Below are positions 8,616 to 57,925 of a stretch of 64,000 bases of DNA, in pieces. The stretch spans positions 1 through 64,000 of the forward strand of contig CAVQSP010000011.1 of NCBI GenBank assembly GCA_963715985.1, in the 5' to 3' direction. Position numbers and translations under genes: made by a program. The notes under the pieces are model-generated. The model did no database searches and was not told the DNA's origin. It saw nothing but the letters and a program-made list of their open reading frames with translations. This DNA comes from an uncultured Thermoleophilia bacterium (lineage in GTDB: Bacteria > Actinomycetota > Thermoleophilia > UBA2241). Within the stretch, counting starts at the first letter, position 1. Each line of letters starts with the position of its first letter.

Positions 8616-8877
8616 GGCGACGATGGGGCGGCGCGGGTGACGATGCCGGAGCATCCATCCCAACGGGACTGCACATCGGCGAGACGGGCACCCTCAAAGG
8701 GTACGCGACTCCTGATATGAGCGATGCTCAAGACGGGAGGCTGTGATCCGCTGAACGCAGCACTGCGGCCACCGCAGTCCGGCGGGGAGCCACTGGTGAG
8801 ACCGGCCCGCGAGGCCGGTCTTCGTGCATGTGGGATCGGCCCATGGGGAGCCGAGGGGCCGACGGGAAGGGGAAGGC

Positions 8878-37968: not shown

Positions 37969-39360
37969 ATGGCATCGCGTATCCCGACGAGACTCGGCGA
38001 CGGTTCGCTGGTCGAGATGACCCGGGCGGAGATCGAGGCGGACCTCAACGCCGGCTCGGAGGTCGCCGTCAAACGGGCCAAGGTCGAGCCTCTTCCCCAG
38101 GACGACATCGACCACCTGCTCGACATCTTCACCTCCCCGGCCAAGTTCAGCGCCGTGGACTACGGCGACGAGGTGGTCCTCAGCTTCGACGGCTCCGGCA
38201 ACGCGGACATCGGCGCGCCGGTGCTCGAGCAGATCGTCTACCAGAACCACCACGGCGCCGACATGATCGAGCTCTGGCACCACGACTACTCGTACAAGGC
38301 CGTGCGCACCGTGCTCTCCTTCCAGACGCAGCTGCTCAAGGACGCGCAGCAGCAGACCGTGATCCCTCTCAACTACGGGGCGATGCCGGACCTGGGCCGC
38401 TACTCCATGCCGGACGGCCCGGCGAGGAACTGGTCGGAGCTGCTGCCGCTGGGCAAGGTCGACGAGGCCCGCGAGGCCCAGCTGGAGGCCGTGGAGCACC
38501 TCGAGAAGGACATGTGGTACGTGATCGAGGCCATGGTGGCGGCCGGCGTGGACGGCATCGACTTCGACACCGCCGGCGCCGCCGGGGACGCCGACCTGCT
38601 GGCCACGCTGCGCACGGCGCGCAAGCTGCGCGACACGTGGCCGGACATCGGCGTCGAGATCGGCCAGGCCTCCGAGCTCGTGCTCGGCATGCACGGGCAG
38701 CTCGAGTACGAGGGTACCCGGCTGGCCGGCCAGTGGCCGCTCGGCCAGCTCCGCGCCTGCACGGCCGCCGGCGCCACCATCTTCGGGCCGGCGGTGAACG
38801 TGAACACCACCAAGTCGCTGGCCTGGAACACCGCCCGCGCCTGTGCCCTGGTGAAGCCCGTCACCGCCGAGGCCAGCATCCCCGTGCACATGAACGCGGG
38901 CATGGGCGTCGGCGGCGTGCCCATGACCCCGTATCCGCCGGTGGACGCCACGTCGCGCGCCTCACGCGCGCTCGTCGACATCTGCAAGATCGACGGCTTG
39001 TAGGTCGGGGTCGGGGATCCCCTCGGGATGGCCTCGACACACGCGCTCGCCTCGGGCATGGGCGGGATGCGGACCGCCGGAGATCTGGTGGCCCGCATGC
39101 AGATGACCCGAGGCCTACGCCTTCCGCAGGCCAAGCAGTACGTGGCGGACAAGCTCGGCTGCTCCGTCGCCGACCTCGGCGACACCGTGGCGATGCACGA
39201 CATCCGCCGCGACCTCGGTCTCGGCCGCATCCAGGTGCAGGACCTCACCTACGCCGACCATCCGGGGGCCATGGAGGCCAAGTTCCACGTCGCCGAGGTG
39301 CTGGACATCCCCATCAACTCGGTGGAGCGCTTCAAGGCGCACGCCGGACTCGTGCTCATG
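37969..39360 (+). CDS. mtbB: Dimethylamine:corrinoid methyltransferase MtbB paralog 1; in-frame TAG at 39001..39003 (predicted Pyl345); reads in frame into the downstream MttB homolog
   Basis: TRLGDG, DYSYK, YGAMPDLG, FDTAGAAGDAD, E.VLGMHG, GMGVGGVPM, then DGL*VGVGDPLGM..HALASGMGG.R.AGDLVARMQ continuing MtbB homology after the amber. Confidence 0.92.
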
Positions 39361-40830
39361 AGCCCCTCACAGCTCGACCTGACGAGCCGCCAGCCGCTCC
39401 TGCCGCTGGGCTCGGACTTCCGCGTCACCTTCTACGACGCCGCCAAGCTGGAGCGTTACCGCGAGGCGGTCCTCGCGGTGCTGGAGCGCACCGGGGTGAA
39501 GTTCGGTTCACCCAAGGCGCTCGCGGTCCTCGAGGAGCACGGCGCCAACGTCGACCGCGCGTCCGGCGTCGTGCGCTTCCCGCCCGACCTCGTCGCGCGC
39601 GCTCTCGCGAGCGCCCCGCGCACCTTCTGGCTGGGCTCGCGCGACGGCACCCTCGACCTGGACCTCGCGAGCGGCGACACCTTCAACACGACGAACGGCT
39701 GCGGCACCGAGGTCGTGGACTGGCACACGGGCGAGCGACGCGCGCCGACCAAAGACGACCTCGCGGCCATCACGCGGATGATCGACTATCTGGGCTCCGT
39801 CCAGTTCTGGTGGCCCAACGTGGCCGCGGCGGACTGCGGCGACACCCACACCCTGCACGAGCTGGACGCCGCCTGGAACAACACGGCCAAGCACCTGCAG
39901 GGCATGGTGCAGGGCGAGCGCGAGGCCAGGTACGCGGTGGAGATGGCGATGGTGATCGCCGGCGGCGCGGAGCAGCTTCGCCGCCGTCCCCCGATGAGCA
40001 ACCTCATCGGCACGGTGCAGCCGCTCATCAACGACAAGGACGGCATCGAGGCGGCGCTGGTGTTCGCGGAGGCCGGCGTGCCCGTGTGTTTCGTCACGAT
40101 GCCCACGTATGGCACGACGGCGCCGGCAACGAAGGCCGGCGCCTACGTGATGGGCTTCGCCGAGCTCATCAGCGCCGCGGTGTGCGTACAGCTGGCGCAC
40201 CCCGGCGCCCCGGTGATCCTGTTCCCCCTGCCGGTGCACGCCGACCCGCGCACGGCGGCGCTCACGACGGCGCCGCTGAACCACCGCGGCCTCTTCCTGC
40301 CCGGCGAGCTGGTACACCACTTCGGCCTTCCGGCGATGACCGGGTACGCCGGCACCGACGACGACCTGCCGGGCACATGGCTGGCGGCCGCGGAGACGGC
40401 GCACACGGTGATGCTCGCCGGCATCGTGGGCTCGGAGCTGATGACCACCATCGGCCTCACCAACCGCTACCAGCTGTTCACGCCCGAGCACATGATGCTC
40501 GACGACGACCTCTACCGCCGCGCCGCCAACGCCTTCCGCGACCTCGAGCTCGACGAGGAGACGCTGGCTCTGGACGTCATCGACGCCGTCGGTCCGGGAG
40601 GTCACTTCCTCGGCCAGCCGCACACGCGCCGCCACATGAAGGAGACGGTGGAGCGCTCCATCGGCCAGGAGATCGGCCCGGACGGCACGCACCTGAGGAA
40701 CGCCGTGGAGGTCGCGCGCGAGCGCGGCCTCGACATCCTCGAGCACTACGTGCCGGAGCCGCTCGACGAAGCCAAAGCGGCGGAGCTGGCGCGCGTCATC
40801 GCCGCCGCCGACGCCGAGCTGCTCGGGTAG
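39358..40830 (+). CDS. MttB-superfamily methyltransferase without Pyl (in frame with mtbB1)
   Basis: LE.TGV, GTTAP.T.AG, HPGAP, LALDVI..VGPGGHFL..PHT; no internal TAG. Confidence 0.88.
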   Translation: MSPSQLDLTSRQPLLPLGSDFRVTFYDAAKLERYREAVLAVLERTGVKFGSPKALAVLEEHGANVDRASGVVRFPPDLVARALASAPRTFWLGSRDGTLDLDLASGDTFNTTNGCGTEVVDWHTGERRAPTKDDLAAITRMIDYLGSVQFWWPNVAAADCGDTHTLHELDAAWNNTAKHLQGMVQGEREARYAVEMAMVIAGGAEQLRRRPPMSNLIGTVQPLINDKDGIEAALVFAEAGVPVCFVTMPTYGTTAPATKAGAYVMGFAELISAAVCVQLAHPGAPVILFPLPVHADPRTAALTTAPLNHRGLFLPGELVHHFGLPAMTGYAGTDDDLPGTWLAAAETAHTVMLAGIVGSELMTTIGLTNRYQLFTPEHMMLDDDLYRRAANAFRDLELDEETLALDVIDAVGPGGHFLGQPHTRRHMKETVERSIGQEIGPDGTHLRNAVEVARERGLDILEHYVPEPLDEAKAAELARVIAAADAELLG

Positions 40831-41839: not shown

Positions 41840-43246
41840 GTGGAGCACAAGATCCGCACGAGGCTCGGCGACGGCTCGCTCGTGGAGATGACGGCGGCCG
41901 AGATCCGCGCCGACCTGGAGGCCGGCACCGAGCTCGGCGCGCGGCGCTCCAAGGCCCCCCAGCTCTCCCCCGCCGAGCTCGACCACCTGCTCGACATCTT
42001 CGCCAGCGAGGCCAAGTTCAGCGCCGTCGACATGGGCGACGAGGTGGTGCTCAGCTTCGACGGCTCCGGCAACCTCGACTGCGGCACACGCGTCGACGAG
42101 CTGTACAGCTACCAGAGCCATCGCGGCGCCGACATGCTCGAGCTGTTCGGCATCGACTACTCGTACAAGGCCGTCAAGACCATCCTGAGCTTCGAGGCGC
42201 AGTGGATGAAGACGGCCCAGCTCAACCTCATCGCGCCGCTGCAGTACGGCGCGATGCCCGACCTGGGCCGCTACTCCATGCCCGACGGGCCCATCCCCAA
42301 CTGGTCGGAGCTCATGCCGCTCGGCAGGATCGCCGAGGCCCGCGACGCGCAGGTGGCCGCCATCGAGCACGCCGTGGCCGACATGGTGTACGTGGCCGAG
42401 GGCATGTGGGAGGCCGGCGCCGACGGCCTCGACTTCGACACGGCCGGGGCCGCCGGCGACGGCGACTTCCTGGCGGCCCTCACGGCGATCGAGACCATCA
42501 AGGGCCGCTACCCGGACTGCGGCATCGAGCTCGGCATGGCCAGCGAGTACGTGCTCGGCATGCACGGCGAGCTCACCTACAAGGGCCGCCGGCTCGCCGG
42601 GATGTGGCCCGTCGAGCAGCTCAAGGTCGCGCAGGAGGCCGGCGCCACCATGTTCGGGCCGGCCGTCAACGTGAACACCACGAAGAGCGTGGCCTGGAAC
42701 GTGGCCCGCGCCTGCACCATCATCAAGCCCTGCATGGACGTCGCCGAGATCCCCGTGCACCCCAACGTGGGCATGGGCGTGGGCGGCGTGCCGATGAGCC
42801 CCTACCCCCCTGCCGATGCCGTCTCGCGCGTCTCGCGGGCCCTCGTGGACATCCTCGGCTGCGACGGCTTGTAGGTGGGCGTGGGCGACCCTCTGGGCAT
42901 GGCGTGCACGCACGCGCTGGCCTCGGGCATGGGTGGCATGCGGACCGCCGGAGATCTGGTGGGCCGCATGCAGATGACCCGGGGCATGCGCCTCAAGGAC
43001 GCCAAAGCCCACGTGGCGGGCAAGCTCGGCTGCGCCGTGGCCGACCTCGCCGACCCTATCGCCATGCACGACCTGCGCCGCGACTTCGGCCTCGGCCGCA
43101 TCACGGTGCAGGAGCTCACGTACCCCGGCCACGCGGGGGCCATGGAGGCCAAGTTCCGCATCGCCGAGGTGCTCGACGTACCGATCAACAGCGTGGACCG
43201 CTTCGCGGCCCACGCCGGCTTGACCCCGACGGGAGGACGAGAGTGA
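41840..43246 (+). CDS. mtbB: MtbB paralog 2; in-frame TAG at 42872..42874 (predicted Pyl345), 468 aa on read-through
   Basis: ORFs 41840..42874 and 42875..43246 are contiguous in frame: DGL*VGVGDPLGM. Confidence 0.93.
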
Positions 43247-44713
43247 AACGCAACCTGCAGGCAGGCGGCCTGCGCAGCCGCGGGCTCAGCGTCAACGTGT
43301 TCACGGAGGCGGAGCTCGACGACATCCACCTCGCCACCCTCGAGGTGCTGGAGCGCACCGGCATCTTCGTGGAGGCCGACGAGGCGCTGGACATCTTCAA
43401 GGACGGCGGCTGCCTCGTCGACCGCGAGCAGCGCGTGGTGCGCATCCCGCCGCACATCGTGGAGGACGCCATCCGCTCCGCGCCCAGCAAGTACGTGCTC
43501 GCCGGGCGCGACCCGAAGAACGACTTCGTCATGGAGCCGGGCCGCGTGGCCTTCACCAACTTCAGCGAGGGCATCAGCGTCATCGACACGGAGACCGGCG
43601 AGCACCGCGACTCCACGCTGGCCGACGTGGCCGACATCGCCCGCCTCAACGACTACCTGCCGCAGTTCGACACGCACGAGATCGCCGTGGGCGCCACGTG
43701 ACGTGCCGCCGGCCACCGCCGCCGTGCACAACACCGAGGCGCAGCTGCTCAACACCACCAAGCCCATCGGCATCGGCCCGCTCTCGGGCCTCGAGTGCCG
43801 GGCCATCCTGCGCATGTGCGCGGAGGTGGCGGGCGGTGACGACGAGCTCCGCGCCCGCCCCATCGTGTACGGCGGCGTATGCCCGGTGAGCCCGCTCAAG
43901 CTGCCGCGCGACGCCACCGAGGTCATCATCGAGTGCTCGCGCTGGTGGATCCCGGACAACATCCTCAGCATGGCCATGTCCGGCGGGTCCAGCCCGGTGA
44001 CGCTGGCCGGCACGCTCGTGGTGCACAACGCCGAGGTGCTCAGCGGCATCGTGCTGGCGCAGCTCACCGAGCGCGGCTGCCCGATGATGTACGGCAGCTC
44101 GACCACGGCCATGGACCTCAAGCTCGCGGCGGCCAGCGTCGGCTCGCCGGAGATCTGCCTGATCAGCGCCGCGGTGGCGCAGATGGCGCGGCGCTACTCG
44201 ATCCCGAGCTTCGTGGCCGGCTTGTAGGCGGACGGCAAGCTCGGTGACGCGCAGACCGGTCACGAGAAGACCCTCACCGGACTCACGGCAGCGTTGGCAG
44301 GGGCCAACCTGATCTACGGTGCGGGGATGATCGAGTCGGGCGTCACCTTCGACTGTGCCCAGTTCGTCATGGACAACGAGATCGCGCGCATGATCAAGAT
44401 GGTCGTGGGCGGCATCCGCGTGGACGACGAGAGCCTGGCCGTGGACGACATCCACGCCGTGGGCCCCTTCGGCGACTTCCTCTCGCTGGACTCCACGTAC
44501 AAGCATATGCGCGACCTCAGCCAGCCGGAGATCCTGGACCGGCGCACGCGTGAAGACTGGGAGGCGCGCGGCTCCACCGACCTGTACACGCAGGCGAGAG
44601 AGAAGGCGCGGGACATCCTGCGCGAGCACCACCCGGAGCCGCTGCCGGACGACGTCGCGGCGCGCATCCATGCCATCGTCGAGGAGACCGACCGCGCCGC
44701 CGGCGTGGCCTGA
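43243..44713 (+). CDS. mttB: Trimethylamine:corrinoid methyltransferase MttB; in-frame TAG at 44225..44227 (predicted Pyl); 1-bp insertion near 43697
   Basis: PVSPL, SMAMSGGSSPVTLAGTLVVHNAEVLSGIVLAQL, YGSSTT.MD, then PSFVAGL*ADGKLGDAQTGHEKT...GAN.IYGAGM. Confidence 0.93.
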
Positions 44714-44726
44714 GGAGGTCGCACGC

Positions 44727-46341
44727 ATGTCCACTGAGGCACAGGTCCAGGCTGCCGCGAGCAGCCACGCGCTCGACCTCGAGCGCAAGAAGCTCAAGAA
44801 GGTGCTGCACCGCTTCGACCTCGTCTTCTTCACGATCGCCGCCTTCATCAGCCTCGACACCATCGCGGTCACCGCGGCGTACGGCGTCGGCGAGACGTTC
44901 TTCTGGCTGGCCTTCCTGATCATCGTCTACCTGATCCCCTACGGTATGATCATCGCCGAGATGGGCTCGGCCTTCCCGGTCGAAGGTGGGCCCTACGCGT
45001 GGGTCCGCATGGCCTTCGGGCGCCTGGCCGGCCTCGTACACTGCGGTCATCTACTGGGGCTCGAACCCCGTGTGGATCGGCGGCACGCTGGCGGCGACCT
45101 CAGTGGCGGCCATCAACAGCCTGATCGTCCTCGACGATCCGATGAGCACGCGGCTGGTCCATCGTCGTCGGTCTCGCCGTCGTCTGGGTGACGGTCATGC
45201 TGTCGATGATCGAGATGAAGTACGGCAAGTGGACCGGCATCATCGGCACCATCGTCCGCCTGCTCACCCTGTTCATCTTCCTCGCCCTCGTCGTCGTCTT
45301 CCTCGTGCAGCACGGCAAGCCCGAGGGGACGATCACGGTCGCCAGCCTGAAGCCGACACTCCTGGGGTTCCTGGCCGTCATCGGCCTGCTGCAGTTCATG
45401 TTCGTCGGCTTCGAGCTGTCCAGCGGCGCGGCCGAGGAGATGACGAATCCTCAGAAGGACGTCCCCAAGATGATCCTCCGCTCGGGCCTGATCGCCGCCG
45501 CCATCACCGGCTCGATGATCCTCGGGGTGCTGCTCGTCATGAACGGCGACGCGCTCTCGAGCGTGGCCGGCTTCACCGACGCCTACAACTCGGTGGCCAG
45601 CGTGCTGGGCGGCGCCCAGACGGCGTTCAACTGGTTCATCTGCGCGCTCATCATCCTCACCATCATCAGCGCCGGCGGCGTGTGGCAGCAGGGCGGCGTG
45701 CGCATCCAGGCCATGGCCGGCCTGGACGGCGCGGCGCCTCTGTGGTTCGGCAAGTTCAGCAAGCAGGGCACGCCGCTCACCATGAACATCCTCTCGGCGA
45801 TCATCGGCTCCATCTTCGTGGTGCTCGTGTTCCTCGTCGCCGAGGGCAGCCTCGCGACCTTCTTCGCCATCATGGTCTCGGTGATCATCTCGCTCACGGC
45901 AATGATGTACATCTTCCAGTTCCCGGCGGTGATCATGCTGCGCAAGAAGTACCCGGACCATCCGCGGCCGTTCCGCGTTCCCGGCGGGCCGGGTTCCTGT
46001 GGCTCTGCGTCATCGGCGCCGAGACCATCGTCATCATCACCATCATCACGCTGCTGTGGCCGGGCCTGCTCGACAACGCCCTCGGGCAGCCGTACAGCAT
46101 CAGGACTACTGGTGGGGCGTGTCCCGCGCCTACTTCGAGACCGTCGACGCTGGGCATCGTCGGGCTTCTTCCTGCTGATGGCGGTCGTCGTTCTGGGCCA
46201 TCGGCAAGCGCAACATCAGGAAGGGGCTGGTAGGCGAGTACGACCTGCTGGCGATCGACAGCGAAGCGGTGGCCGAGGAGCGCAAGTACGAGGCCAGACG
46301 CATCCTCACCATCATCACGAGCCGAGGGGGAGAAGGCGTGA
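44727..46341 (+). CDS. APC-family amine/amino acid permease (several frameshifts)
   Basis: LKKVL.RFD, AEMGSAFP.EGG.Y.WV, FVGFE...AAEE..NPQKD.P, RPFRVPGG; end inferred from GTGA overlap. Confidence 0.85.
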
Positions 46342-47800
46342 GCGGTCCGCAGCGCCAGGCCTCTGGCACCCATCCGCTCCGACTTCGCGTGGCAGTTCCA
46401 CGACGAGGCGCAGCTCGCGCCGCTGCACGACGCCACCCTGCGGCTGCTGGAGACGACCGGCATGCGCTTCGAGTCGCCGAAGGCGCTCGAGATCCTCAAG
46501 AAGTGCCGGCGCGCCAGGCGGACGAGGGCGCTGACCGCGTCCGTCTCCCTCGCCGGCTCGTCGAGGAGACGCTCGCCCAGGCGCCGCGGCAGTTCACGCT
46601 CGGCGCCCGGCGACGCCTCCTGCGACCTGCAGGTCGGCTCCGGCTTCACCTACGGCACCACCGACGGCTGCGGCGTCGAGGTCGTCGACTGGCGCACCGG
46701 CGAGCGCCGCTCGTCGACCAAGGCCGACCTCGAGGCGGTCACGCGCATGCAGGACTGCCTCGGCTCGATCAGCTACTGGTGGCCGACGGTCAGCGCCGGC
46801 GACTGCGGTGAGACGGCGCAGCTGCACGAGATCGAGGCGGGCTGGAACAACACGAGCAAGCACCTGATGGGGATGGTGCAGGGCGAGACGCTCGCCCGCG
46901 CGGCCGTCGAGATGGCGACGCGCGGTGGCCGGCGGGGCCGAAGAGCTCCGCCGCCGGCCGGTCATGAGCGACCTCATCGGCACCGTGTCACCGCTGCTGC
47001 ACGACAGGGACGGCATCGAGGCCGGCCTGGTCTTCGCCGAGGCCGGCATCCCTGTCTGCTATGTCACGATGCCGAACCTCGGCACGACCGCTCCGGCCAC
47101 CAAGGCCGGCGCCTTCGTGCTCGGCGCCGCCGAGATCGTCGCCGCCGCGGTGCTGCACGAGCTCGCCGCTCCGGGCAGCCCGGTCATCGGCTCCGTCATG
47201 CAGATCTACGCCGACCCGCGCACGGCGCTCACCATGACGTCGCCGCTCGACGACCGCTGCCGCTTTCTCGCGACAGAGCTGCTGCACAGCTTCGGGCTGC
47301 CGGCGCTCGGCCCCTTCGGCGGCACCGACGCGGACATGCCGGGCACCTGGCTCGCCGGGGTCGAGACGATGCTGCAGCTGCTGCAGCTCCCGCTCGACGG
47401 CTGCGAGCTCTACACCGGCATCGGACTCACCAACACGTACCAGCTGTTCACCCCCGAGAACCTCATCCTCGACGACGACCTCTACCATCGCGCCAGGCAC
47501 GCGTTCCTCGACATCCCGATGGACGAGGAAGCGCTCGCGCTCGACGTGATCGACGCCGTCGGCCCCGGCGGGCACTTCCTCGCCCAGCCGCACACACGCC
47601 GCCACATGCGCGACGCGGTCGTGCGCGCGGTCAGCCAGGAGATCGCGGAGGACGGGCAGCACTACCGGGATCCCGTGGAAGTGGCGCGCGAGCGCGCCCT
47701 CGACATCCTCGCCAACTACACGCCCGAGCCGCTGGACGACGACGTGCGCCAGGAACTGCGAAGCATCGTGGACGCCGTGGACAGCGAGGCGCGCGCGTAA
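46338..47800 (+). CDS. MttB-superfamily methyltransferase without Pyl (frameshifted); close paralog of 39358..40830
   Basis: GCG.EVVDW.TGERR, WWP.V.A.DCG, AWNNT.KHL-like, GTTAPATKAGA, VGPGGHFL. Confidence 0.85.
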
Positions 47801-51878: not shown

Positions 51879-53270
51879 CTACAGCTGCGCACGCTCCTTG
51901 AAGAGCTCCACGCAGTTGATGGGGATGTCGAGCGTGCGCGCGATGTTGAACTTGGCCTCCATCATGCCGGCCTCGGACGGGTGCGCCGTCGAGGTCATGG
52001 CGATGACGCCGAGACCCTTGTCGCGGCGGATGGTCTCCATCGCCACGGGGTCGCTGAGGTCGCGCGTGGTGCAGCCGAGCTTGCCGGCCACGTACTGCTT
52101 GGCTTCCTTGAGTCGCATGCGCCTGGTCATCTGCATGCGGGCCACCAGATCTCCGGCTGCCCGCATCCCGCCCATGCCGGACGCTTGCGCGTGGGCACCC
52201 TCCATACCGAGAGGGTCGCCCGTACCCGCCTAGAACCCGTCGATCTTGAGGATCTCGACGAAGGCTTTGGATGCCCGGCTGGTGGCGTCGGCCGGCGGGT
52301 AGACGCAGTTCGGCACGCCGCCGACGCCCATGCCCACGTTGACGTGCACGGGGATCTCGGCGATCTCCATGGCCGGCTTGATGAACGTGATGGCGCGGGC
52401 GATGTTCCACGCCGTCGAGCGCCCTGAATTGATGTTGACGGCCGGCCCGTAGACGCTGGCGCCGGCCTGCTGGACCATGCGCAGCTGGTCCTTGGGCCAC
52501 ATGCCGGCCAGACGGTCACCGTCGTACGTGAGCTGTCCGTGCATGCCCAGCACGAACTCGCTGGCCATGCCGATCTCGATACCTAGCCAGGGGTACTTGT
52601 CACGGAGCGTGCGGCAGGCGGTGAGGGCGGCCAGGAAGTCGGCGTCGCCGGCCGCCCCGGTGGTGTCCATGTCCACGCCGTCAGTGCCGGCCGCCACCAT
52701 GTGGTCCGCCACGTAGCCGATGTCGTCGACGAGCATCGCCATGGCCGCCTCCTGGGCGCCACGGGCCTCGTCGATCTTGTTCAGCGGCAGGAGCTCGGAC
52801 CAGTTGGGGATCGGGCCGTCGGGCATGGAGTAACGCCCCAGGTCGGGCATCGCGCCGTACTGGATCGGGTTGGTGAGCAGGCTCTGGGCGATCTTCATGC
52901 TCTGGCCCTCGTGCGCCACGTTCACCTTGATGGCCTTGTACGAGTAGTCGATCTGCCAGAGCTCGACCATGTCCACGCCGATGAGCGTCTCGTAGGACTG
53001 CAGGTCCTGCACGCGGTTGCCGATGTGCTTGGTGCCGGTGCCGTCGTTGCTCATCACGACCTCGTCGCCGATGTCCACAGCCGTGAACCGGGCCGGCGAG
53101 GCGTAGATGTCGAGCAGGTGCTCGAGCTCGTCCTGCGTGAGCATCGGGACCTTGGCTCGCTTGGCCGCGAGCTGGGTGCCGTCCTCGAGATCGGCCCTGA
53201 TCTCGGAGCGGGTCATCTCGACCAGCGACCCGTCACCCATGCGCGTGGGGATCTTGGGCTCCACCGCCAT
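51879..53270 (-). CDS. mtbB: MtbB paralog 3; in-frame TAG at 52232..52230 (predicted Pyl347); final stop is also TAG
   Basis: [36 protein letters not shown]. Confidence 0.93.
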
Positions 53271-55145: not shown

Positions 55146-56339
55146 ATGGCGCGCAAACCCCTCTCCGGCGATCTCGGCGGCCCCCGCGGGTGGGGCGCAG
55201 GTTCGCTGGCGCTGGCCGCGCTCCTGGCCGCGGCGGCTGCCCTCGCCGTGATGCTGCTGCCCGGCCACGAGCGGCCCGCGCCCGTCACCACGCCCGTACG
55301 GACGCACGCGGCGCCGCACGTGCGCGCCTGGTCCGCCGTGGTCATGGACCCGGCCACCGGCGTCATCCTCTACGCGAAGGCGCCCGACCGGCGCCTGCCC
55401 ATGGCGTCGCTCACCAAGATCATGACCGCGAGCCTCGTGCTCGAGCGGATGCAGGACCTGGAGGCATACGTCACCGTCCCGGCCACCGCCATCGGGCAGC
55501 CGGGCGCCAAGCTGGGCCTCAGCGCCGGCGACCAGATCACGGTGCGCCAGCTGCTGTTGGGACTCATGGTGAGGAGCGCCACCGACTGCGCCATCACCCT
55601 GGCGACGGCCGTGGCCGGCGACGAGACGCACTTCGTCCAGCTCATGAACCGGCGCGCGGCCGCGCTTGGCCTCGCCAACACCCACTTCGTCAACGCCTCG
55701 GGCGTCAACGTGCGCGGCCACTACTCCAGCGCGCGCGACCTCTCCACCCTCACCCGCACGGCCGTGCGCGACCCGCGCTTCCGCCTGCTCGCGCGGCGGG
55801 TGTGGGCCACGGTCACGTGGCCGCCGGCGCACGAGGTGCGCCTGCATTCGCACAACAGGCTGAACGAGCTCTACGACTGGGTGGACGGCGTCAAGACCGG
55901 CTTCACCGAGGGCACCGGCGCCTGCCTCGTGGCGACCGGCAAGTATGGGGCGCGGCGCCTCATCGTCACCACGCTGCACCAGCCCTCGCGCGACCAGGAG
56001 GTGCGCGACGCGCTCAGGCTCTTCGCGTACGGCGCGTCGCGCTTCGCACGCAAGCGCATCGTGCGGGCCGGCGAGCGCGTCGGCGAGCTGCCTCTCGAGA
56101 TCGGCGGACGAGCCGCGGCGCTCACCGCCGGGGCCGGGCTGGCCCGCGTGGTGCGCAAGGGCGCCCCCGTGACCACGCGCCTCAGCGTCCCGGGGACGCT
56201 CCAGGCGGCGCCGGCAAGGGACGAGGTGGTCGGCTACGCCACGTTCTGGTCCGACGGCGTGCTGCTGGGATCGGTCCCGGTGCGTGCCGAGGCGGCCCAG
56301 GCGGTGTCGCTCAGCGCGACGCCGCCCGCGACGCCGTGA
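55146..56339 (+). CDS. D-alanyl-D-alanine carboxypeptidase (peptidase S11)
   Basis: ASLTKIMT (SxxK) and GVKTGFT; SAT in place of SxN. Confidence 0.88.
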   Translation: MARKPLSGDLGGPRGWGAGSLALAALLAAAAALAVMLLPGHERPAPVTTPVRTHAAPHVRAWSAVVMDPATGVILYAKAPDRRLPMASLTKIMTASLVLERMQDLEAYVTVPATAIGQPGAKLGLSAGDQITVRQLLLGLMVRSATDCAITLATAVAGDETHFVQLMNRRAAALGLANTHFVNASGVNVRGHYSSARDLSTLTRTAVRDPRFRLLARRVWATVTWPPAHEVRLHSHNRLNELYDWVDGVKTGFTEGTGACLVATGKYGARRLIVTTLHQPSRDQEVRDALRLFAYGASRFARKRIVRAGERVGELPLEIGGRAAALTAGAGLARVVRKGAPVTTRLSVPGTLQAAPARDEVVGYATFWSDGVLLGSVPVRAEAAQAVSLSATPPATP

Positions 56340-57714
56340 CCTCGCGAAAGCGCTGGACGGAGTTGATCGGGATGTCGAGCAGCTCCGCTATGTGCACCTT
56401 TGCCTCCAGCCCGAGCGGCTCGCCCACGTAGGTGACCTCGCCGGCCTCGGTCATGGACCCGAGTCCGCGCTCCTTGCGCACCTCGAGCATGACGACCGGA
56501 TCGCTGAGGTCGTCCTCGGACACTCCGAGCCGCCCGGCTACATAGGCCTTGGCCTCGGTGAGTCGCATCCCCCGGGTCATCTGCATCCGCGCCACCAGGT
56601 CTCCGGCGGTGCGGACGCCTCCCATGCCCGAGGCGACGACGTGGCTCACGGCCTGGCCGTAGACGTCGCCGGCGCCTACCTACAAGCCGTCCAGCCGCAG
56701 CAGGTCCACGGCGGCGCGCGAGGCCCGCGACGTCGCGTCTCCCGGCGGCAGGATGTGCATGGGCACGCCCCCCACCCCCATGCCGCCGTTGAGGTGGACG
56801 GGGATGGTGGCCTGCTCGCAGCACGGCTTGCAGATCGCGATCGTGCGCGCCACGTTCCAGGCCACCGACTTGCCGGTGTTCACGTTGATCGCCGGCCCGT
56901 AGATGGTGGCGCCGGCCTTGGCCGCCAGCTTCATCTGCTCGAGGGGCCAGAGACCGGCCAGCCGCACGCCCTCGTACTCGAGCTCGCCGTGCATGCCGAG
57001 CACGAACTCGCTGGCCATGCCGATCTGGATGCCCAGATCGGGGTGCCGTGCGCGGATGCGCTCGATAGCCACGAGGGCCGCCAGGAAGTCGGCGTCGCCG
57101 GCGGCCCCCGACGTGTCCAGGTCGATGAAGTCGGCGCCCGCCTCGGCGAGGCCGTCCGCCACGTACACGATGTCGGCGGCGGCCTGCTCCACGGCCGCTT
57201 CCTGCGCCTCCCGCGCCTCGGCGTACCTGCCGAGCGGCAGCAACTGGGCCCAGTTGGGCAACGGCCCATCCGGCACCGTGTACAGACCCAGGTCCGGCAT
57301 GGCGCCGTACCCGCACGGCGTGGTGAGCAGGTACTGCGCCTGCCGCATGATCGTCTGCTCGTAGGGAACGACGGCCTTGGCAGGCTTGAACGAGTAGTCC
57401 TGATGGTAGAGCTCGACCGAGTCGGCGCAGAGGAACTGCTCGTAGTACTGCAGGTCGTGCACGCGCGTGCCGATGTCGTGGGCTCCGCTGCCGTCGTAGG
57501 TGAGGACGACCTCGTCGCCGATGTCCACGGCGCTGAAACGAGCCGCCGACGCGAAGATGTCCACCAGGTGCAGGATCTCATCGTCGGTGAGCGGCGGCAC
57601 TTTGGCGCGCTTCACCGCCGCCTCCACCCCGGCCCGCACCTCCTGCTCGATCTCCGCCCGGGTCATGCGCACCAGCGACCCGTCGCCCATGCGCGTCGGG
57701 ATGGATCGGTCCAC
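56311..57714 (-). CDS. mtbB: MtbB paralog 4; in-frame TAG at 56682..56680 (predicted Pyl345)
   Basis: [36 protein letters not shown]. Confidence 0.92.
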
Positions 57715-57925
57715 AGGTCTCCCCCTGCTCACTCGTCACGAAGGCCGGCGGCGTCCGCCGCCGGCCCCTTCCACCATGCGCAGCAGAGCGTACAGGGGCG
57801 TTCCGCCGCTGTCATCGTGCCATCGTTCGGCAAACTTAGCGGGCACGGCGGCGGCGAACATGGATGAAGCGCGGATGCCCGGCCGGGCTCGCCCGCCCTC
57901 GACGGCATGCGGCCGGCTGCGGCCG

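Follow-up and report, generated by a model that had tools for sequence, protein, structure and literature searches.

A hairpin under RNA-level selection downstream of the pyrrolysine UAG codon in mtbB genes of an uncultured Thermoleophilia bacterium

Genes and hairpins at the mtbB locus

The window, a stretch of 64,000 nucleotides, is part of a 4.35-Mb metagenome-assembled genome (G+C 70%), and in public data the mtbB genes most closely related to its own come from uncultured Thermoleophilia. The window carries four genes for dimethylamine methyltransferase (mtbB, Pfam PF09505), and in each of them a single in-frame TAG occupies the pyrrolysine (Pyl) position. The genome encodes a tRNA-Pyl with the anticodon CUA and a PylS catalytic domain that scores 316 bits against a cut-off of 178. 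Its set of methyltransferases for methylated amines is unusually large: the 15 mtbB matches, fragments among them, amount to about a dozen copies, the MttB family is matched 89 times, mostly by TAG-free sequences, and MtmB is matched eight times, by two sequences with a TAG and six without (two of these six are adjacent pieces of one gene). Contigs C11, C3 and C14 are among those with methyltransferases. Across the phylum, mtbB is present in 2 of 301 sampled genomes. Actinobacteriota MAGs from Stordalen Mire are reported to express Pyl-encoding mttB and mtbB (PMC10805028), and the use of Pyl in the Actinobacteriota group is therefore already in print.

The features of the four genes are listed below, with codons numbered from the Pyl TAG.

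37969-39357, + strand: mtbB1, with an in-frame TAG and without a stop of its own, running in frame into an MttB-superfamily ORF
38998-39003, + strand: TTG (Leu, codon -1) followed by the Pyl TAG (39001-39003) of mtbB1
39001-39100, + strand: PYLIS_2 match in mtbB1 (RF02509, 65.3 bits)
39067-39098, + strand: mtbB1 hairpin of six pairs, an A.C mismatch, seven pairs and the loop AGAU, codons +22.1 to +32.2
41840-43246, + strand: mtbB2, Pyl TAG at 42872-42874, TTG at -1, TGA stop
42938-42969, + strand: mtbB2 hairpin, loop AGAU, -21.2 kcal/mol, within a PYLIS_2 match at 42872-42971 (65.3 bits)
51879-53270, - strand: mtbB3, Pyl TAG at 52230-52232, TTC at -1, terminal TAG at 51879-51881 after CTG
52135-52166, - strand: mtbB3 hairpin, loop AGAU, -22.5 kcal/mol, within a PYLIS_2 match at 52133-52232 (63.7 bits)
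56311-57732, - strand: mtbB4, Pyl TAG at 56680-56682, TTG at -1, TGA stop
56585-56616, - strand: mtbB4 hairpin, loop AGAC, -22.7 kcal/mol, within a PYLIS_2 match at 56583-56682 (53.0 bits)

The frame of mtbB1 continues into a TAG-free gene of the MttB superfamily (window 39340-40830, + strand), which has its ATG at 39358 and ends in a TAG near 40828. The joint open frame is 967 aa long, and orthologues in relatives have open frames of mostly 473-477 aa; the joint frame is either a true fusion or an assembly error. The Pyl-type mttB that adjoins mtbB2 (window 43261-44700, + strand) has MTTB matches in two frames, 43261-43674 and 43691-44686, and a second MttB-like gene (window 46324-47800, + strand) is likewise in two pieces, 46324-46920 and 46928-47773. 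These splits reflect either frameshifts or assembly indels. Two other elements were seen in the same genome. A c-di-GMP-II-GAG riboswitch aptamer (RF03169) is matched at window positions 8727-8816 (+ strand) with 58.9 bits against a gathering score of 40, and a tRNA-Sec (anticodon UCA) is called by ARAGORN at C13:139538-139635. Given the latter, the organism may use both selenocysteine and pyrrolysine.

The mtbB hairpin has 13 pairs and an AGAY loop in all four copies, and starts 63 nt downstream of the in-frame TAG, counted from the G. Its sites at 39067 (+), 42938 (+), 52166 (-) and 56616 (-) are those given in the first-pass annotation of this DNA. Folded alone, each copy adopts ((((((.(((((((....))))))).)))))) or a close variant, with a minimum free energy (MFE) of -21.2 to -22.7 kcal/mol compared with about -10 kcal/mol for dinucleotide shuffles (z of -4.25 to -4.70); between 0 and 1 of 200 shuffles fold as well. 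The stem codes for M-R-T-A-G-D-L-V-A-R-M. Nine of its 14 positions pair through protein-fixed first and second codon positions, one is the A.C mismatch, and four pair through third positions, which are the only ones free to vary. The alignment of the copies bears out the codon GGA in all four and GAT in three, as well as the compensated form GTCCGC...GCGGAT of mtbB4, with two G-C pairs swapped to C-G and one A-U changed to G-U. The fixed distance from the TAG, also pointed out earlier, holds at 63 nt in 148 of 148 mtbB genes, but it carries little information because the protein stretch contains no indel.

The hairpin belongs to a family that is already catalogued. RF02509 (PYLIS_2, pyrrolysine insertion sequence mtbB) matches the four genes with 65.3, 65.3, 63.7 and 53.0 bits against a gathering score of 36, and the matches begin at the TAG codons (39001, 42872, 52232 on the - strand and 56682 on the - strand). 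The 3' stem-loop of the model (consensus ..CcgCuGGaGAcCUuGugG..) is the core of the window hairpin. It lies at model positions 73-92 and forms in this lineage, with pairs 74/91 to 80/85 standard in 140-148 of the 148 mtbB genes and with covariation. Model pair 73/92 is standard in only 56 of 148 and corresponds to the A.C mismatch. The Thermoleophilia lineage differs from the model in having six further outer pairs, 13 in total, and in position 78/87, which is unpaired in the model and a standard pair in 147 of 148 lineage genes. The 5' stem-loop (model 7-38) fares differently, since 5 of its 11 pairs are standard in less than 60% of the 148 genes; these are 10/35, 11/34, 12/33, 14/31 and 17/27, with counts such as 46/148 and 5/148, and cmscan flags several of the 5' pairs as non-standard in the window copy.

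The first-pass annotation had proposed a candidate bacterial PYLIS-like element. The element is real and selected at the RNA level, but it is not new, being the 3' stem-loop of the curated RF02509. The window hairpin is thus a lineage member of a catalogued family with a predicted function. The family itself is a computational prediction, and a literature search found no functional test of the mtbB element. One paper states that the 100 nt following the mtbB UAG allow a "relatively canonical" consensus structure; that structure is said to be unlike the mtmB PYLIS, and mttB to be without sign of a common structure (PMC3639795). A 2007 survey is on record as finding no common structure in bacterial Pyl genes (PMC1976440).

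Selection on the mtbB hairpin

The mtbB comparison comprises 186 full-length tblastn matches, which reduce to 148 distinct genes. They were drawn from this genome, from 24 genomes of its genus, from one genome that belongs to a different family of the class, and from contigs of public MAGs. Genes were included if they covered query residues from 15 or earlier to 440 or later in one piece and free of N; fragmentary and frameshifted copies were left out. Synonymous resampling of the 148 genes with family codon usage shows how much of the pairing the protein could produce by itself. Resampled genes have 10.76 of 14 stem pairs and a mean MFE of -14.0 kcal/mol, compared with 12.57 pairs and -18.6 kcal/mol observed. 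For the third-position pairs the expectation is 1.90 of 4, and 3.61 of 4 are seen. The earlier caveat was that some pairing is likely by chance; the pairing observed exceeds this level.

Covariation at the four third-position pairs was followed on a tree of the mtbB gene without codons -2 to +45. The 148 genes provide 24 phylogenetically independent contrasts (4, 12, 4 and 4 per pair), of which on average 21.8 are compensatory (3.4, 10.4, 4.0 and 4.0), 2.2 are unchanged and none goes in the opposite direction. Pair 5/26 alone has 10.4 of 12 compensatory contrasts (sign test p of about 0.002). Among the mis-partnered controls listed (2/26, 8/20 and 11/23), only 0.1-0.4 contrasts change in the same direction and most show no change. 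Across the alignment of the 148 sequences, 93.4% of cells are paired compared with 85.0% after shuffling, and double-change cells number 106 compared with 28.3; neither value is reached by any of 500 shuffles. When the 3' partner is slid by 1-3 columns, only 31-44% of cells pair.

It is very improbable that the pairing is a by-product of a partly palindromic peptide with GC-rich third positions, or of gene conversion among the paralogs. The peptide does supply the nine protein-fixed pairs, and resampling alone reaches 10.76 of 14 pairs and -14.0 kcal/mol. However, the third-position excess and the one-sided direction of the contrasts are not expected from it, the codons used are the rare GGA, GAT and GCT and not the biased ones, and the same pattern recurs among the metagenome matches listed, at a G+C of 0.48-0.72. 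Gene conversion would yield identity, not compensatory double changes. Maintenance of the mtbB hairpin by RNA-level selection is thus strongly supported, as the first-pass annotation had suspected: about 22 compensatory contrasts, an invariant GGA and synonymous anomalies clustered near the TAG all point the same way. It had proposed setting many related mtbB genes against synonymous controls; in the 148 genes, pairing exceeds that of synonymous resampling and double changes exceed those of the shuffled alignments.

The synonymous anomalies come from a gene-wide scan of 90 mtbB genes for columns in which the choice among synonymous codons deviates from that of the family. The strongest anomalies of the entire gene lie at codon -1 and at codons +14 to +40. 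At the top is Gly +26, which is GGA in 90 of 90 genes (148 of 148 in the larger set) with a family usage of 6%. The Leu at -1 is TTG in 70 of 75 cases, with a family usage of 5%, and Asp +27 is GAT in 58 of 90, with a family usage of 9%. Codon +28 (CTG) follows, and then +21, +14, +36, +25, +23 and +17. The invariant A of this GGA is the first base of the loop. Swapping it shifts the predicted MFE by at most 0.9 kcal/mol, and stability therefore does not account for its conservation.

Several other uses of the loop region were considered and set aside. As for an internal restart codon, the GTG found 5 nt after GGAG is not conserved in the 90 genes (GTG 65, GTC 19, GTA 5, GTT 1). Shine-Dalgarno-like pairing was dropped as well; GGAG in mtbB and AGG in mttB could base-pair over a few positions with the 16S 3' end, but in different registers, and the fourth loop base of mttB is free. 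The loops are complementary to tRNA-Pyl over no more than 4 nt. Outer helices joining codons +16 to +19 with +34 to +37 appear in RNAalifold with 87-89 sequences, where the pair +18.3/+34.3 is standard in 94%, but with 135 distinct sequences they are gone and only the inner stem is left. Mutual information over codons -20 to +70 is mostly subfamily signal, and it coincides with pairing only at the hairpin pairs.

A scan of metagenomes with the peptide pattern A-G-D-L-V-[AG]-R-M-Q, third codon positions being free and other peptides lying outside the sample, returned at least 120 stretches. The matches listed number 83 in 80 loci, 79 of them with enough flank, and in 77 of these 79 a TAG lies exactly 25 codons upstream; 75 are distinct, with a local G+C of 0.48-0.72. 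Among the matches listed, GGA is found in 72 of the 75 and TTG at -1 in 65. The three sequences with GGC look archaeal, have a weaker stem and are the only archaeal mtbB DNA in the comparison, so the constraint on the hairpin may not be universal. Pair 11/20 is standard in 73 of the 75 listed and pair 8/23 in 62, the latter with five standard pair types, whereas for the outer pairs the counts fall to 49 (2/29) and 50 (5/26). The seven-pair core is thus widespread among the matches listed, and the long stem is particular to the Thermoleophilia lineage.

Two uses of UAG and a second hairpin in mttB

TAG ends 415 of 2154 long coding-like ORFs in the genome, about 19%, which agrees with the first-pass statement that the genome also uses UAG as a stop. 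Even mtbB3 ends in TAG. This terminal codon (51879-51881, - strand) lies 117 codons past the Pyl TAG, with 466 more codons before another in-frame stop; UAG must therefore be read once as Pyl and once as a stop in the same mRNA. A terminal TAG is present in 36 of the 109 mtbB genes with a readable end. The codon for Leu differs between the two kinds of site. Before the Pyl TAG it is TTG in 123 of 148 mtbB genes, while Leu before the terminal mtbB TAG is encoded by CTG 20 times, by CTA once and by TTG never, with many orthologues among these cases. Genome-wide, Leu at -1 is TTG in 1 of 33 cases at ordinary TAG stops and in 12 of 14 at read-through-like TAGs. This contrast of UUG before the Pyl TAG and CUG before the terminal TAG goes beyond the Rfam entry.

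Hairpins with an AG-type loop, searched for 66-86 nt downstream, are similarly distributed. Of 69 read-through-like TAGs, 19 are followed by one, and 16 of the 19 are mtbB or mttB. The corresponding counts are 2 among 344 ordinary TAG stops, 28 among 1675 TGA stops and 14 among 1232 in-ORF positions.

The mttB gene that adjoins mtbB2 has both elements:

44222-44227, + strand: TTG followed by the Pyl TAG (44225-44227)
44293-44308, + strand: mttB hairpin GUUGGC-AGGG-GCCAAC, built with the rare codons TTG and GCA, starting 65 nt after the TAG, -7.7 kcal/mol

Pyl-type mttB is not homologous to mtbB, but it has anomalies of the same kind. In 41 full-length genes, +24 is GCA and +23 is TTG in every case, and the Leu at -1 is TTG in 28 of 29. 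The rare codons build the hairpin GUUGGC-AGGN-GCCAAC, again starting 65 nt after the TAG, which is present in most of 61 distinct TAG-type mttB sequences. Compensatory variants include CTG..AGC, CTG..GGC, TTA..GCT AAT and GGA..CTC, a few of which also alter the amino acid. The loop starts 77 nt after the TAG in mtbB and 71 nt after it in mttB, and these offsets are similar but unequal; in one mttB copy a one-codon insertion moves the loop to 74 nt. None of 24 TAG-free MttB paralogs has the hairpin, including one that is 69% identical and has the same peptide. As Pyl-type mttB is a single subfamily, this presence and absence is partly one phylogenetic contrast. The Rfam model for mttB, RF02510 (PYLIS_3), matches 44225-44324 with 73.8 bits and spans the hairpin stretch, but its consensus structure does not contain the hairpin. 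The AGGN hairpin of mttB and the share of about 19% of genes that end in TAG also go beyond the RF02509 entry. Overall, the structure is confined to UAG sites of the Pyl type, in two gene families that are not related.

The third methyltransferase gene gives a partial parallel. The mtmB sample consists of eight closely related TAG-type genes from 41 genomes of the genus. All eight have UUG at -1 and no comparable hairpin is seen in them, with sequences too alike for a structure test. They also keep the rare codons AAT, TTG, CAT and TCT 30-50 codons downstream of the TAG. No match to RF01982 at the gathering score was found in the window or at the mtmB locus of the genome.

The hairpin could have a role unrelated to UAG, either as a regulator binding site common to methylamine-utilisation mRNAs or in slowing translation, in a programmed way, so that the active-site region can fold. 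Selection at the RNA level is what has been established, and mtbB and mttB act in the same pathway and could share a regulator. GGA and GAT are also rare in the genome (6% and 9%), as a slow-down would have it. However, the strongest constraints lie at codons -1 and +22 to +28 in two non-homologous genes, which would have to be a coincidence, and the TAG-free MttB paralogs encode the same peptide without the hairpin. Among the metagenome matches listed, GGA is kept at a G+C of 0.48-0.6, where it is not rare. A role of this kind is accordingly unlikely.

A possible role in UAG decoding

The reading favoured here, with a probability of roughly one half, is that the hairpin and the UUG at -1 favour productive Pyl decoding at the internal UAG. 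The hairpin and the UUG directly before the UAG would together form a two-part context by which the internal UAG is marked for pyrrolysine. Such a mark would matter because the organism also stops at UAG, sometimes in the same mRNA. The first-pass suggestion that the hairpin promotes UAG read-through is plausible on evidence that is circumstantial in kind.

At 63 nt downstream, the hairpin lies out of reach of a ribosome whose A site is at the UAG, and action at the mRNA entrance in the manner of SECIS or PYLIS is therefore unlikely. Most likely the loop is recognised by a partner, either a protein or another RNA, and does not serve as a steric block at the mRNA entrance. Recognition by a partner is suggested by the loop A, which is invariant though the predicted thermodynamics do not need it. 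The partner is putative, and so is any influence on whether Pyl-tRNA or release factor prevails at the UAG.

The bacterial SECIS offers a close analogy, as it is likewise a stem-loop in coding sequence that follows a stop codon decoded as a rare amino acid, with a loop that is read by a partner. SECIS acts through a dedicated elongation factor, and we know of no dedicated factor for the pyrrolysine hairpin. To our knowledge, a distance of 63 nt fits no known bacterial recoding stimulator. The placement also differs, since SECIS is described as lying immediately downstream of UGA (PMC1976440), whereas the mtbB hairpin follows a UAG, at a distance of 63 nt. The mtmB PYLIS (RF01982 according to PMC3639795) is likewise a proposed mRNA structure within 100 nt after the Pyl UAG of a methylamine methyltransferase, but it belongs to another gene, has another structure and is placed immediately downstream of the UAG (bioRxiv 10.1101/2024.09.30.615893), unlike the mtbB hairpin.

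Published work on other organisms and elements weighs against a role in decoding. The effect of the mtmB PYLIS on read-through is presented as debated, and the element as not essential for Pyl insertion (PMC3639795; bioRxiv 10.1101/2024.09.30.615893); its being dispensable counts against a decoding role of the mtbB hairpin. In a ribosome profiling report on M. acetivorans (2026), neither mtbB nor mttB is described as having a distinct pause at its UAG (PMC13663744), which also argues against such a role.

The hairpin might instead be linked to UAG without an effect on the decoding choice, by handling the consequences of slow UAG decoding, by transcription coupling or by mRNA protection. It might hold RNA polymerase, or shield the ribosome-free RNA ahead of a ribosome waiting at the UAG from termination factors or nucleases; the 3' part of the mRNA would then be transcribed and preserved in step with successful read-through. 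The site, about 50 nt ahead of the front of a ribosome positioned on the UAG, would suit action on naked RNA, and the mtbB stem is stable (-21 to -23 kcal/mol) and placed specifically at UAG in two gene families. On the other hand, no U run follows the stem, the mttB stem with its six pairs and -7.7 kcal/mol is weak for a block, and a purely structural block would not require the A that is invariant in 148 of 148 loops and unneeded for stability. This alternative therefore appears unlikely, to about the same degree as a role unrelated to UAG.

If the preferred reading, Pyl decoding favoured by UUG and hairpin, is taken one step further, bacteria with a dual UAG might mark their Pyl sites by a shared UUG in the P site together with a hairpin that has an A-G-purine-N tetraloop some 65-80 nt downstream, of independent origin in mtbB and mttB and read by the putative partner. 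This generalisation is tentative and distinctly less probable than the decoding role itself. If it is true, UUG and the hairpin would be a cis signal for a UAG of dual meaning, which is now said in the field not to exist.

The problem of telling a Pyl UAG from a stop UAG is sharp in this lineage, where about one-fifth of the genes end in TAG and about one-third of the mtbB genes have a Pyl TAG and a terminal TAG in one mRNA. The mtbB hairpin is already catalogued; worth bench work are its counterpart in mttB and the use of UUG ahead of a Pyl UAG but CUG ahead of a terminal one. The compensatory changes in the stem, the invariant loop base, the placement in mttB and the UUG/CUG contrast together make a predicted Rfam family experimentally addressable, and the results could aid the calling of Pyl genes in metagenomes.
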